The position numbers and the translations under genes were made by a program. The notes beneath the pieces were generated by a model. The model was given only the letters and a program-made list of their open reading frames with translations. It made no database searches and had not been told where the DNA came from. A stretch of DNA of 64,000 nucleotides, taken from positions 1 through 64,000 of IMG/VR virus record IMGVR_UViG_3300033475_000013. The stretch is one strand, 5' to 3'. This stretch comes from a virus (taxonomy: Duplodnaviria > Caudoviricetes). Position 1 is the first letter of the stretch. Each line of letters begins with the position of its first letter. This document shows, one piece after another, positions 4,374 to 20,210 of the stretch.

Positions 4374-4456
4374 AATAAAAATCGGGTTAACCCCACACCC
4401 GAAGGCCTAAACTGTGCGATACTTCGCTGTACTGGACTCTACGTCACATGACGCTA
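4374..4456 (-). ncRNA. 5-nt-periodic (NGY-NN)9 array A plus 3' hairpin; candidate vrRNA-like guide
   Basis: Minus strand: cGTca tGTga cGTag aGTcc aGTac aGCga aGTat cGCac aGTtt aGGCCT, then hairpin CGGGT-GTGGGGTTA-ACCCG and a T-rich tail. Confidence 0.8.
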
Positions 4457-5026
4457 TTATAATAATTTTATAGTCGTTAACTCAAATCGTCCGAACATAC
4501 CATTATTTGAAGGCCTAAATGAGCCTATCCCAACATATTTACCAGCATACTCAATGATTTGTTCGATAGTCTGAATAGTGATTGAGTCCTCGTCAATTGA
4601 AAGCGTGAATTCAGCGCTCCATTCAGACCATTTTGGACGAACAACGATTACACGAGCCTTTACATTCCTATTGACAGCAGATCGTTTATCGATGCTATCA
4701 AAATCTGGCAATAATATTTGGTCAGGCGAAACCATAAACATAGCTGCCACTATCTGTTTCATGGATTTTGAACGGCCACCAACTTTAGCTTTCACGTAAG
4801 AACCTGCTGCAATTAATGCCCCTCTAATTTGTTCAGATGGTATAAAACATTGTTCATCGGAATTTCGATAGCAATGATATTCCGCACGAACAAGATCCTC
4901 TTTTACTAACTCTGGACGTTCATGAATTGGGCCTCGTTGCTTCTCCCATTGCTCAAGCTTTTGATCATCCATACGGTGTTGCATGTATGGTGTAATTCCT
5001 TTAATTTTTACTTTGTATATTTTCAT
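4457..5026 (-). CDS. Stand-alone RAMP/Cas7-like (RRM-fold) protein, Vipr-like
   Basis: N-terminal strand YKVKIKGITPYMQH; FIPSEQIRGAL (RAMP IPxxxxxGxl motif); RPKWSEWSAEFTL; C-terminal Gly-rich loop GKYVGIGSFRPSNNGMFGRF. No other cas genes nearby. Confidence 0.75.
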   Translation of the reverse strand: MKIYKVKIKGITPYMQHRMDDQKLEQWEKQRGPIHERPELVKEDLVRAEYHCYRNSDEQCFIPSEQIRGALIAAGSYVKAKVGGRSKSMKQIVAAMFMVSPDQILLPDFDSIDKRSAVNRNVKARVIVVRPKWSEWSAEFTLSIDEDSITIQTIEQIIEYAGKYVGIGSFRPSNNGMFGRFELTTIKLL

Positions 5027-5033
5027 AAAATTG

Positions 5034-5115
5034 GATCACTTTACCCCACAATGATCAGAGGCCATTACTTGACTACACTTCGCCCCACATCGCTTGGCTT
5101 TGCAACGCATCAGCA
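5034..5115 (-). ncRNA. 5-nt-periodic (NGY-NN)9 array B plus 3' hairpin; candidate vrRNA-like guide
   Basis: Minus strand: tGCgt tGCaa aGCca aGCga tGTgg gGCga aGTgt aGTca aGTaa tGGCCT, then hairpin GATCAT-TGTGGGGTAAA-GTGATC. Confidence 0.8.
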
Positions 5116-5142: not shown

Positions 5143-5829
5143 TTAAAATTTAATCAATGCCCATTGCATTCCGATACCTACACTTGGTCTATTCTGAATC
5201 GGATCATAACCAACGTAAGGCCCTATACTGAATCGCTTGTCCTTGTAATCCTTCATCAGCACACTGGTGCTATTGGTGATTTTTGCATTCGGATTACCAA
5301 GCATTCCAGAGCCATACAATCGTTCTTTACCGAACAACCACTTTTTCTTTGTACTCATGGTCATTGTGATCACGTCAGAGTAGGTGTATTTATATGGCGC
5401 ATGTAAACTGTCATAGATAGTAGCACGGAAAGCCAGGTATCCGTCCGACACATTCAAGTGCGTAGAATCCATGGACCTTCCAGTACTATCTGTGTAGTGG
5501 TTGTGCGTGATATAAGAATTGCCAGAGCCATGAGCAGTAAATCCTGCCTGCATCACAGCCTTAACTGATTTGAGTTCGATGCCCATCTGCTCGATTTGCC
5601 TAGCTAAGACAGGATAATTTTTTTCAAGGTCTTTTGCTTTCATTTCAGCAGCAAACTTCTCTGCCACCAGTTGACCATTCTTTGTTTTGTGATAATGTAT
5701 AGAGTCGTTCTTCTCAGCAACAACAGATGAGAGTGATTGTTTATCATCCTGAAGGACGTTGACGCGGTGCAGAAGGAAAGCAATGATGAGAATTGCTATG
5801 ATAGTGATTATGATGACGTACTTGTTCAT
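5143..5829 (-). CDS. Membrane-anchored protein, putative spanin-like lysis protein
   Basis: N-terminal TM helix, coiled coil, beta-rich region, C-terminal FSIGPYVGY...GIGMQWALIKF. Confidence 0.45.
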   Translation of the reverse strand: MNKYVIIITIIAILIIAFLLHRVNVLQDDKQSLSSVVAEKNDSIHYHKTKNGQLVAEKFAAEMKAKDLEKNYPVLARQIEQMGIELKSVKAVMQAGFTAHGSGNSYITHNHYTDSTGRSMDSTHLNVSDGYLAFRATIYDSLHAPYKYTYSDVITMTMSTKKKWLFGKERLYGSGMLGNPNAKITNSTSVLMKDYKDKRFSIGPYVGYDPIQNRPSVGIGMQWALIKF

Positions 5830-12500: not shown

Positions 12501-12878
12501 TTACGTTTTCGCGGGAGCACTCCAATTTTTAATTTCTATTTTAACCAATCTAAACAGCAACTGAGCCCAATCCTTTTTGGTAATGTCCAGGTAACAGCCG
12601 GAAAGCTTAAGCATGTAAAGAAACTTAATGACTACCTCATCATCTTGCACATAAAACTTAATCGACTGGCTTTCGGTCTTACTGTAACCGTCAAACTTGT
12701 ACAAGTAGAATTCTCCGTGGTCATCTTTCATCTTGACATTAATAATATCACCGTACTGGTCAGGTGCCATCAGCTTTTCAAAATTAGTTTGCCGTTGCTG
12801 CAAAGCTTCTATTGCAAACTGGCGAACTTGGCGCCGCTCTGCTTTAGAGGAAGACGGATTTATAAAGGTTGTTTTCAT
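12501..12878 (-). CDS. Hypothetical protein
   Basis: ORF in operon. Confidence 0.55.
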   Translation of the reverse strand: MKTTFINPSSSKAERRQVRQFAIEALQQRQTNFEKLMAPDQYGDIINVKMKDDHGEFYLYKFDGYSKTESQSIKFYVQDDEVVIKFLYMLKLSGCYLDITKKDWAQLLFRLVKIEIKNWSAPAKT

Positions 12879-13864
12879 GCTCTGATTCCAGTTATTTCAA
12901 AAAACTTATCTGAGTCAAAACCAGGCAAAGAAGTAAATACAGATTTCTTTTTATCCGTTAAATTACCCCAAAGATTTGCCCATGCTTCTTTGATTGGAAT
13001 AGTTTTTAAATAACCTTCTGTAGTTTCGTGCTTAGGATTTTTTTCTTTTTCTTCAGCACTCATTAATGAAGATGGAACCCAAATTGTAAAGTCAAGATTA
13101 GACATGATTTGGCAAGCTTCGTGATTCTCCCAATCACGCACATTTATATCAGTCAATTTATCAAATAAAATCAATTTAGGGTTTGATTCGGTGCAGAATG
13201 CGCCCGAATTCCTGTAGCCCGAATTACTGTCGCCCGAATTCCTGTCGCCCGAATTCCAGTTGCCCGAATTCCAGTTGCCCGAATTCCTGTTGCCCGAATT
13301 CCTGTCGCCCGAATTACTGTCGCCCGAATTCCAGTTGCCCGAATTCCAGTTGCCCGAATTCCTGTTGCCCGAATTACTGTTGCCCGAATTCCAGTTGCCC
13401 GAATTCCAGTTGCCCGAATTACTGTCGCCCGAATTACTGTCGCCCGAATTCCAGTTGCCCGAATTCCTGTCGCCCGAATTCCTGTTGCCCGAATTACTGT
13501 TGCCCGAATTACTGTCGCCCGAATTCCAGTTGCCCGAATTAGAATGACCGGTATTGTCCTTTCCTTCATTGGCTAAAAATAAAACTTCAGACCACTCAAT
13601 GATGCGAATGATATGAAGCTTATTAGTACAAACTTTAGAATCTTCATCGTGTGTTTGTGTTTCTCCTAACGCTTCAACTTCGCAGACAATATTTTTTGGA
13701 TCAAAATCGTAATACGAAAAACAATCAGAAGCTTTCAAACAAAAATGTAAGCCTGAACGACAAATTGTTATTGGAAGAGGCACTTCAAAAGTCTTGCCGA
13801 CTTCGTATTTCATATTGTTTTGTTTCGCGGTAAAATCTGGATTGAATACTTTATAACCTTTCAT
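12875..13864 (-). CDS. Phage pentapeptide-repeat protein ([ND][WRS]NSG repeats)
   Basis: N-terminal GYKVF...YEVGK...GLHFC domain; 23 xxNSG repeats; C-terminal domain. Confidence 0.85.
   Translation of the reverse strand: MKGYKVFNPDFTAKQNNMKYEVGKTFEVPLPITICRSGLHFCLKASDCFSYYDFDPKNIVCEVEALGETQTHDEDSKVCTNKLHIIRIIEWSEVLFLANEGKDNTGHSNSGNWNSGDSNSGNSNSGNRNSGDRNSGNWNSGDSNSGDSNSGNWNSGNWNSGNSNSGNRNSGNWNSGNWNSGDSNSGDRNSGNRNSGNWNSGNWNSGDRNSGDSNSGYRNSGAFCTESNPKLILFDKLTDINVRDWENHEACQIMSNLDFTIWVPSSLMSAEEKEKNPKHETTEGYLKTIPIKEAWANLWGNLTDKKKSVFTSLPGFDSDKFFEITGIRA
13202..13546 (-). repeat. 23 x 15-bp coding tandem repeat
   Basis: Unit (A/G)AC-(TGG/AGG/AGT)-AAT-TCG-GGC on the minus strand; 345 bp equals 23 units. 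Confidence 0.95.
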
Positions 13865-18766: not shown

Positions 18767-18842
18767 CAGGTATTGGGGAAGTCCGGTCGTTCCCGCCACA
18801 CTTGGAATGTGGAGCTCGTTGGTTCAAATCCAGCATGCCTGA
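18767..18842 (+). tRNA. tRNA-Pro(TGG)
   Basis: Acceptor CAGGTAT/ATGCCTG; anticodon arm CCACA-CTTGGAA-TGTGG; T arm GTTGG-TTCAAAT-CCAGC. Confidence 0.9.
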
Positions 18843-18849
18843 CTTTTAT

Positions 18850-18922
18850 TGCCGGATGGTGGAATTGGCAACACATCAGACTTTGATTCTGAAAATTACA
18901 GGTTCGAGACCTGTTCCGGCAA
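18850..18922 (+). tRNA. tRNA-Gln(TTG)
   Basis: Acceptor TGCCGGA/TCCGGCA; TCAGA-CTTTGAT-TCTGA; ACAGG-TTCGAGA-CCTGT. Confidence 0.9.
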
Positions 18923-18924
18923 CT

Positions 18925-18998
18925 GTGATCGTGGGCAAGTGGCTTAAGCCGCGAGATTGTGGTTCTCGTATTCGCCGGTTCGAATCCGGTCGATCACC
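18925..18998 (+). tRNA. tRNA-His(GTG)
   Basis: Acceptor GTGATCG/CGATCAC; CGAGA-TTGTGGT-TCTCG; C73 discriminator. Confidence 0.9.
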
Positions 18999-19008
18999 AA
19001 AAATTAAT

Positions 19009-19088
19009 GCCCCTGTGACATATGCAAACTGGCACAGCTGACGGTTTTAGACACCGTGTTTTTGAGAGTTCGATTCTCTCCAGGGGTA
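19009..19088 (+). tRNA. tRNA-Leu(TAG), atypical (expanded D region, short variable loop)
   Basis: Acceptor GCCCCTG/CAGGGGT; ACGGT-TTTAGAC-ACCGT; GAGAG-TTCGATT-CTCTC. Confidence 0.75.
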
Positions 19089-19092
19089 CAAT

Positions 19093-19166
19093 GGCTGCAT
19101 GGCGAAACTGGCAGACGCGTCAGACTTAAAATCTGAATTTTACGAGTTCGAATCTCGTTGCGGCTA
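19093..19166 (+). tRNA. tRNA-Leu(TAA), short variable loop
   Basis: Acceptor GGCTGCA/TGCGGCT; TCAGA-CTTAAAA-TCTGA; 5-nt variable loop; ACGAG-TTCGAAT-CTCGT. Confidence 0.85.
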
Positions 19167-20210
19167 CAAAAATTTCTCGATCAATGTTCTGAAAGCGAGT
19201 TCGGCTTGCTGTTCAACGACGGCATTTCCTGCCATGCGAAGAAGGTCTTCTCTAAAGTTGTACCCATTAATTGCATAACCCAGGCTGGATTCAAGACGAG
19301 GCTCTTCGAATTCGAATTGATTTGGTCCTTGTCCTGCTGGAAAAAGACTTGTCTGGGCAATTGATCGCACCGATTCCTCCCATCGCTTCTTTGCATTTCC
19401 ATGCCGGCCGTGTCCTTCCAGTCGAGACTGGAAGGAGTTGTCCATTGTCTGACTTGAACTGGTAATGCTGTTCCTCCTTGTTGAAATTTTGTTTTTCTGT
19501 TGGTTGAACTTGATAACGATGTCGTCCACTTTCTCACTGTCTCCGCCAGATATAACGGAACGGTGTTCTGGTTGGCATTTGACTTCCGATAATCCAAGCA
19601 CTTCTGCAAGGTCTCCTCGTCTCTTACTCTGTTCAGAGCAGTAAGTGTCGGCCACGGCAAGGATGAAGAGACGTTTTCTAAGATGTGGCGTGCCCACTTG
19701 CTCCGCAGCGAATATGTCCGCTTCAACTTTGTAACCAAGGCTTGATATTCGTTCTCTGACTTCCTGGTATCCGATATTGAGGTGGTTTGCGACGTTTTCG
19801 AAGAAACAGAGAACAGGTCTAACTGCGTCGATTCCATGTTCAAAGAAGGGGAAGAGATGTCGTGGATCGGCGACTCCGTTCTGTAGCCCGGCTTGTGAAA
19901 ATGGTTGACAAGGATATCCTCCAGTGAGGATGTGTATTTTTCGGTAAAACTGTTCGTACGGGAATGTTTTAAGATCAGTCCAGATAGGCACTGGAGCCAC
20001 CATACCTTGTTCCATTTTCGCTGCCACATTGTAGGCGGCAAAGGATTCGATTTCCACAATAGCGGCATATTGGAGAATTCTAGCTTGATACATTTTTTCT
20101 CCTTGATGTGGGTACCGTAGTGCTGCAATTCCTCGTTCCAGTCCTCGATCAAGTCCACCTTGTCCGTGGCAAAGGCTGAGTGTAGCGAGTGTTTTTTCGG
20201 GATTATCCAC
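19164..20210 (-). CDS. C5 cytosine DNA methyltransferase (alpha polypeptide)
   Basis: Motif I LCHGQGGLD; motif IV GYPCQPFS; motif VI FENV; motif VIII PHLRKRLF; motif X LRMAGNAVV. Confidence 0.92.
   Translation of the reverse strand: MDNPEKTLATLSLCHGQGGLDRGLERGIAALRYPHQGEKMYQARILQYAAIVEIESFAAYNVAAKMEQGMVAPVPIWTDLKTFPYEQFYRKIHILTGGYPCQPFSQAGLQNGVADPRHLFPFFEHGIDAVRPVLCFFENVANHLNIGYQEVRERISSLGYKVEADIFAAEQVGTPHLRKRLFILAVADTYCSEQSKRRGDLAEVLGLSEVKCQPEHRSVISGGDSEKVDDIVIKFNQQKNKISTRRNSITSSSQTMDNSFQSRLEGHGRHGNAKKRWEESVRSIAQTSLFPAGQGPNQFEFEEPRLESSLGYAINGYNFREDLLRMAGNAVVEQQAELAFRTLIEKFL

Follow-up and report, generated by a model that had tools for sequence, protein, structure and literature searches.

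The window, by which we mean the whole 64,000-nucleotide stretch of DNA analysed here, belongs to a 77,943-bp virus record that carries terminase and portal genes and four tRNAs. On its minus strand lies a 189-aa gene bordered on either side by a tract of five-nucleotide units that ends in a hairpin. The features of this locus, named after the VIPR (Viral Interference Programmable Repeat) systems with which they are compared below, are as follows:

5064-5108 (-): upstream vrRNA repeat tract, nine G-Y-N-N-N units in the 5' leader of vipr; NN pairs GT AA CA GA GG GA GT CA AA
5027-5063 (-): upstream vrRNA tail, GGCCU and a 7-bp hairpin with loop GUGGGGUAA, then CCAAUUUU abutting the vipr ATG
4457-5026 (-): vipr gene, 189 aa, a minimal Cas7-like RAMP with G-loop GIGSFRPSNNGMFGRF
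4456-4485 (-): sigma-70-like promoter match TTGAGT-18-TATAAT within the 3' end of vipr, a match to the consensus only
4408-4452 (-): downstream vrRNA repeat tract, nine G-Y-N-N-N units; NN pairs CA GA AG CC AC GA AT AC TT
4374-4407 (-): downstream vrRNA tail, GGCCU and a 6-bp hairpin with loop GUGGGGUUA, then a U-run

A preliminary description of this DNA had drawn attention to the 189-aa minus-strand ORF on account of its RAMP motifs, which the ORF at 4457-5026 indeed carries, and to flanks of matching design in which a period-5 G-Y pattern leads into GGCCT and a hairpin containing TGTGGGGT. Reading of the strand and a regular-expression scan agree with this architecture in full. Both tracts lie on the vipr strand and GGCCT opens the tenth period, in register (5059-5063 and 4403-4407). 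No nucleotide separates the upstream tail from the vipr ATG, and the downstream tract begins 4 nt past the stop codon. The bases at the variable positions are not alike in the two tracts, as their NN pairs illustrate and as had been described. Tandem Repeats Finder missed both tracts because their units are too dissimilar.

This arrangement is confined to the two flanks of the gene. The scan of both strands of the 64-kb window returned no further run of six or more GYNNN units, and the whole 77.9-kb genome holds no further nine-unit tract even when two of the nine units are allowed to fail. By our own arithmetic, which takes G at about 0.19 and Y at about 0.5, a nine-unit run is expected by chance about 1e-4 times per 128,000 positions. 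The window has no CRISPR array or CRISPR-like repeats and no other cas-like gene was detected around the ORF, in line with the initial reading. The promoter match would initiate transcription approximately at the first downstream vrRNA repeat; the count of promoter-type matches in the region is not above that in shuffled sequence.

We compared the encoded protein with proteins of known structure. A phmmer search of the PDB gave a full-length match to chain D of entry 36pp, the SUSP1 Vipr protein (E 2.7e-10, residues 1-183 of 189), with an identity of about 29% between the two. For the AlphaFold2 model, which drew on 100 diverse relatives, the mean pLDDT is 95 and the top Foldseek matches are type VII Cas7, Csm3, Cmr4 and Cas7-11 (E 3e-7 to 1e-5, TM about 0.5). 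The proposal that the ORF encodes a Cas7/RAMP protein, for which a structural comparison with Cas7, Csm3 and Vipr had been suggested, is thus borne out by the homology to SUSP1 Vipr and by the Cas7-type predicted fold. Within the G-loop, G166, G168, R171, P172, G179 and F181 are invariant or near-invariant across the family; the window ORF is intact and all near-invariant family residues are present. Pfam has no match for the protein, and its sole match in PHROGs is the unnamed family phrog_4652. Judged by homology and modelled fold, the window protein is a Vipr.

VIPR systems are described in preprints from 2026. In the available text of the discovery preprint, Vipr acts with vrRNAs made of 9-16 YNNGG repeats and an invariant structured tail, recognises dsDNA through the NN bases, passing over one base of the target in every repeat, and silences transcription of competing phages and satellites; seven types (I-VII) are distinguished (bioRxiv 10.64898/2026.04.26.720920). 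This text agrees with the account of VIPR given in the preliminary description, a RAMP protein paired with GGY/NN RNAs that specify a gapped dsDNA target. The methods section further states that loci without YNNGG have 'NNNGG, YNNNG, and NNNNG repeats' and that some vipr genes are stand-alone (bioRxiv 10.64898/2026.04.26.720920). Both the repeat consensus and the gene organisation of the window agree with this methods text and, since YNNNG repeats and stand-alone vipr genes are already listed in the preprints, as far as their text was available, the locus belongs to a known kind.

The closest described system is type II VIPR of Escherichia phage SUSP1 and of a Pseudomonas fulva prophage (bioRxiv 10.64898/2026.04.26.720920 and 10.64898/2026.04.26.720927; PDB 36pp). 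Like these, the window locus is phage-encoded, lacks a CRISPR array, and combines a full-length homologous Vipr, a minimal RAMP with RRM core, thumb and G-loop, with vrRNAs on both sides of the gene and on its strand that share the five-nucleotide period, the invariant G-Y and an invariant structured 3' tail. Unlike them, it does not conserve the first G of GGY (YNNNG) and has Ser in place of the G1-reading Asp, it has no vap1-like accessory gene, its branch being without a conserved vap, and it holds just two guides of nine units each. Its tail, GGCCU followed by a hairpin with loop GUGGGGUNA, differs from that of SUSP1 and, unlike in Felixounavirus VpaE1, no conserved 5' hairpin precedes each vrRNA. 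The Vipr model also shares its fold with the backbones of class 1 CRISPR-Cas systems (Cas7/Csm3/Cmr4 and type VII Cas7; Foldseek E 1e-7, TM about 0.5) and, by analogy with them, the protein may form a filament on guide RNA with thumb-driven periodic base flipping. Class 1 CRISPR-Cas differs in having a CRISPR array, other cas genes and an adaptation module, all absent from the window. VIPR, for its part, has a period of 5 nt with only two (or three) read bases per unit, its guides are hard-wired genes, and its dsDNA target is engaged in a gapped register.

We then asked how widely the gene and its flanks occur together. The Vipr family is large, with 693 relatives at E<=1e-3 in a 90%-clustered collection and 2,664 representatives of 50%-identity clusters. 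GYNNN arrays adjoin the gene, on its strand, in all 14 IMG/VR loci with a relative of 49-70% identity. In a set of 95 loci, which includes 80 metagenome loci added to the IMG/VR loci, arrays of at least seven units lie on the gene strand in 91 and on the opposite strand in 2, so that the periodic flanks looked for around homologues are found. The identical scan recovers the canonical GGYNN arrays of Felixounavirus VpaE1, our positive control. Relatives reach up to 8 arrays and 32 units; the window guides stand at the short end of the published range of 9-16 units, nine units amounting to at most 18 read bases. Among cultured phages, megablast of the locus found nothing, and the relatives returned by tblastn all fall below 30% identity; nearly all of them belong to Felixounavirus-like enterobacterial phages, the group of SUSP1, so the window Vipr has no close cultured relative.

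One Asp-type Vipr relative (P0175; L020:1568-2001 and L021) departs from this layout. The 430-nt gap upstream of it has no period-5 G-Y tract; a TCCAAGGTYTTT-like motif is present there three times instead and may represent another vrRNA architecture.

No accessory gene travels with vipr in this branch. The ORFs next to vipr in the window are not found beside it in 94 related loci, with the sole exception of a 128-aa ORF in three of them, and all-against-all clustering of the neighbours yields no family in more than 7 of the 95 loci, vipr itself and its antisense shadows aside. No DNA-binding or nuclease domain was found among the window's vipr neighbours, where DUF6549 is the only domain detected and the others are domainless. 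The module consists of vipr and its vrRNAs alone, moved among differing phage backgrounds. The DUF6549 match (E 1.6e-7) belongs to the gene directly upstream of the locus (5143-5829, minus strand), which encodes 228 aa with an N-terminal hydrophobic helix and is not kept beside vipr in relatives. In a related 121-kb phage contig, a full-length tmRNA (L005:4123-4526; Rfam RF00023, 90.8 bits) lies about 0.6 kb downstream of vipr.

The tails show signs of conserved RNA structure. In the window, the upstream stem pairs 5050-5056 with 5034-5040 and the downstream stem 4397-4402 with 4382-4387; both loops have nine bases and each hairpin is followed by a T-run. The same type of tail, GGCCU, a hairpin with a common loop and a U-run, recurs with different stems in the closest relatives and is common to both window copies and L003, L027, L028, L030 and L096. 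In the alignment of nine such tails, four stem pairs can be aligned; compensatory changes occur in three of them, and 97% of cells are paired. A second helix, between GGCCU and GGGUU of the loop, is 96% paired and almost invariant in the same alignment, pointing to a possible pseudoknot; because its pairs are invariant, the pseudoknot is only a suggestion. The downstream tail looks like an intrinsic terminator in its sequence. No Rfam family fits the vrRNAs, and no hammerhead ribozymes lie between the arrays. The folding stability of the complete vrRNAs is not above that of shuffles, which agrees with a protein-bound single strand.

The tail type varies by subclade: GGCCU-hairpin tails, plain U-runs and, in L012, a longer hairpin are found. 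Many clade arrays (L001-L014 and L027-L106) end in two or three units that are near-constant whatever the guide, for example GTTTA GTAAA or GTATA GTTCT, and that therefore look like scaffold and not guide. The final one or two units of the window guides resemble such conserved scaffold units.

We further examined the repeat position at which the window departs from the canonical motif. In SUSP1 Vipr, H17 and D177 contact G1 of the GGY triplet, R138 and W178 contact G2, and Y3 is contacted by a pocket with R179 among its residues (bioRxiv 10.64898/2026.04.26.720927). The equivalent residues of the window protein are H17 (H17 in SUSP1), R130 (R138), F170 (W178), R171 (R179) and S169 (D177). The strict GGY motif is absent: the base preceding each G of the window tracts is A in 61%, T in 22%, C in 11% and G in only 6% of units, and across the clade G is found there in 14%. 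Over the 688 units of the first 15 loci this base is A in 40%, T in 33%, C in 13% and G in 13%, with an entropy of 1.83 as against 1.89 and 1.90 for the NN positions. In the VpaE1 control, G precedes G in 84% of units.

The occupancy of the first position follows the residue in the G-loop. G is the preceding base in 14% of 3,374 units from 92 loci with Ser, in 11% of 99 units from four loci (two distinct) with Ala, and in about 22% in the one lineage with Asn. In the six Asp lineages with arrays, the corresponding values are 58%, 84%, 86%, 96%, 98% and 100%. Relaxation of G1 thus tracks the change from Asp to Ser, Ala or Asn, in keeping with the part that D177 is reported to play in the reading of G1. 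This association spans about 11 phylogenetically clustered lineages and is a correlation, not proof; it suggests a direct, testable structure-function rule for how Vipr reads its repeats. The preliminary description had remarked that the first base of the triplet varies and that the system might be a distinct subtype. The first part holds throughout the clade, and the second does not, YNNNG repeats being already in the preprint. Nor does the relaxed GGY affect VIPR membership, because the discovery preprint, in its available text, accepts such variants. The same text, where it deals with the alternative repeat classes, neither explains the relaxed position mechanistically nor gives targets for the YNNNG class.

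Searches with the window's own guides returned no candidate target. Under ten pairing rules, neither guide has a site of at least 85% in its own genome or in the related loci; the absence of a self-target in the genome agrees with the available text of the VIPR discovery preprint. When 196 clade guides were run under the same ten rules on the window genome and on vipr neighbourhoods totalling 465 kb, there was no excess over shuffled guides, and the guides therefore do not target each other's loci. Seven complete genomes of related vipr-carrying phages hold no window-guide site with up to three mismatches. Exact nine-unit patterns, in which only the NN bases are specified (xNN), have 0 and 0 matches in IMG/VR for the two guides. 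In GTDB genomes the guide patterns hit four unrelated sites, none in Bacteroidota and without a shared gene, and these were rejected as chance. The eight-unit patterns, with 29 and 15 IMG/VR matches in unrelated genes or in one redundant marine lineage, were likewise set aside as being at chance level. The genomes matched by window-guide patterns have no proteins in common with the window's phage. As no more than 18 bases of a guide are read, searches of this kind have too little power in databases so large.

The guides of relatives are more informative. One guide family is common to five vipr-carrying phages, L007, L008 (twice), L060, L062 and L070, with the core GTAAT GTCAA GTCAT GTGTA GTGTC GTCCG; it keeps its NN positions, and drift is seen at Y and at the third base. 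Expressed as an xNN pattern in which 16 bases are specified, the family was used to search IMG/VR. At least 80 matches were obtained, and 73 of the 80 listed (targets L111-L190) fall at the start of genes of 73-77 aa, exactly on codons 2-9. The matched gene is DUF2188 (PF09954, E 1e-25), and the site takes the form ATG-(1 codon)-GGx-AAx-AAx-CAx-CAx-GTx-GTx-CC, that is M(x)GKNQHVVP, in which the skipped base always occupies the wobble position and varies among DUF2188 alleles. This signal is far above chance because control patterns of equal information, the two taken from the window guides, give just 29 and 15 scattered IMG/VR matches. A second conserved guide family (L009/L087) had just six matches, a chance number. 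Other guides with several matches in DUF2188 loci were rejected as low-complexity.

The presumed natural targets of this guide family of the window's relatives fit the rule of NN plus a one-nucleotide skip, with the skip at the wobble base, as in the SUSP1 and P. fulva systems. The DUF2188 sites support, at the level of pattern matching, this code, its wobble alignment and promoter-proximal targeting for the YNNNG branch. DUF2188 seems to be a recurrent VIPR target, to judge from these sites; it is not mentioned in the available text of the VIPR papers, and the starts of DUF2188 genes would be the first natural target class for the YNNNG branch.

The canonical gapped code is our default. We also considered whether the third base is read. 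In the branch with Ser, Ala or Asn, loss of the Asp might free the G1 nucleotide to pair with the otherwise skipped base, giving contiguous triplets with two guide bases bulged per three target bases; we hold this as a tentative idea that is probably wrong. As an account of the locus, namely a VIPR system whose Ser-type/YNNNG branch reads one contiguous triplet per 5-nt repeat with no skip, it is improbable. What first suggests it is the variability of the third base, equal to that of the NN bases (1.83 as against 1.89 and 1.90), together with the loss of the Asp that reads this position. In the guides that match DUF2188, moreover, the third base is always one that would keep the target codon synonymous (Lys A/G, Asn T, Gln A/G, His T/C), and transversions of it occur solely opposite four-fold sites. 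However, A/T-rich drift alone yields common wobble bases, and the family guides share ancestry, so that few independent events are represented. In L060, the sole family guide tallied, the third base equals the skipped base at just 1-4 of 8 positions in sampled DUF2188 alleles, which is chance level, and the L062 unit that faces the start codon is ATT, not ATG.

A broader test on 172 clade guides gave a similarly divided result. Read as triplets, the three variable bases of the units give 102 in-frame sense stops, as against 122 +/- 7.5 with the third base shuffled (p 0.0025), stop-free guides number 100 as against 87 +/- 5 expected (p 0.005), and the third base after TA is a pyrimidine in 61% of units compared with 46% overall. 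Yet TGA is undepleted and the antisense frame is without signal. The second guide family (L009/L087) gave no target on which the third base could be compared, and in the solved SUSP1 geometry the skipped base is flipped into a pocket. If true, triplet reading would give VIPR a second recognition code, one that packs more information into each repeat, and the guides of this branch would follow their target genes one codon at a time, for example at the start of DUF2188 genes. Programmable VIPR tools would need different design rules if the third base is read.

Returning to the gapped code, we consider it very probable that the locus is a minimal VIPR system, free of accessory genes, of an uncultured tailed phage. 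The support computed here comprises the homology and fold of the protein, the array architecture, its conservation across the clade, covariation in the tail, the correlation between G-loop residue and repeat, and the fit of relatives' targets to the skip rule. In the working model, two vrRNAs of roughly 80 nt each would be transcribed from the flanks of vipr, and Vipr, a one-domain Cas7-like RAMP, would polymerise along each of them, every 5-nt repeat taking up one protomer. The conserved G-Y would be sequestered by a pair of protomers, and the two bases that follow it would be presented for pairing with dsDNA, every third base being skipped. Capping of the vrRNA 3' end would fall to the tail hairpin or pseudoknot, which would probably terminate transcription too. 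The resulting filament would block transcription of its target, most likely some gene carried by a competing phage, prophage or satellite. Transcription of the vrRNAs, assembly of the ribonucleoprotein, silencing of DNA and the biological target of the window guides are thus predictions of the model, and repression of competitors, the role already proposed in the preliminary description, is its presumed function.

A different view would accept the Vipr homology and take the locus as decayed or repurposed, its tracts being remnants, decoys or leader and terminator elements and its protein inactive or acting on another RNA. Such decay would suit the small complement of just two nine-unit guides where relatives reach 8 arrays and 32 units, the lack of any accessory gene and the fact that target searches with the window guides found none, and the tails do double as terminator-like hairpins. 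But nine units lie inside the published range, and searches with 16-18 read bases are inherently underpowered, their controls alone giving 15-29 chance matches. The ORF, moreover, is intact with all near-invariant family residues in place and a confident fold, and both tracts keep a perfect nine of nine G-Y in register together with an intact tail common to the closest relatives. We regard decay as very unlikely.

Taken as a minimal VIPR system, the locus is a compact representative of an environmental branch that is very large, with one 189-aa protein, two short vrRNAs and a relaxed repeat. VIPR is months old and bench work has been confined to GGY-type systems of enterobacterial and Pseudomonas phages. 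For annotation, stand-alone phage RAMP genes are worth checking for period-5 G-Y tracts.

The host of the phage is probably no enterobacterium, unlike that of SUSP1. Relatives of its portal protein in cultured phages, at only 23% identity, are all in Flavobacterium, Cellulophaga and Maribacter phages, and the portal is thus distantly related only to those of Flavobacteriia phages. The G+C content is 38%, and gene starts are A/T-rich and without Shine-Dalgarno sequences. The portal relatives, the base composition and the Shine-Dalgarno-less starts together hint at a Bacteroidota host.

Two further features of the genome were recorded. A cluster of four tRNA genes lies at 18767-19167 on the plus strand (Pro-TGG, Gln-TTG, His-GTG and Leu-TAA). 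At 13202-13540 a 15-nt unit, GCCCGAATTCCTGTT, is repeated 22.6 times with 91% identity inside a 329-aa ORF (12875-13864, minus strand), so the encoded protein has a long pentapeptide repeat.
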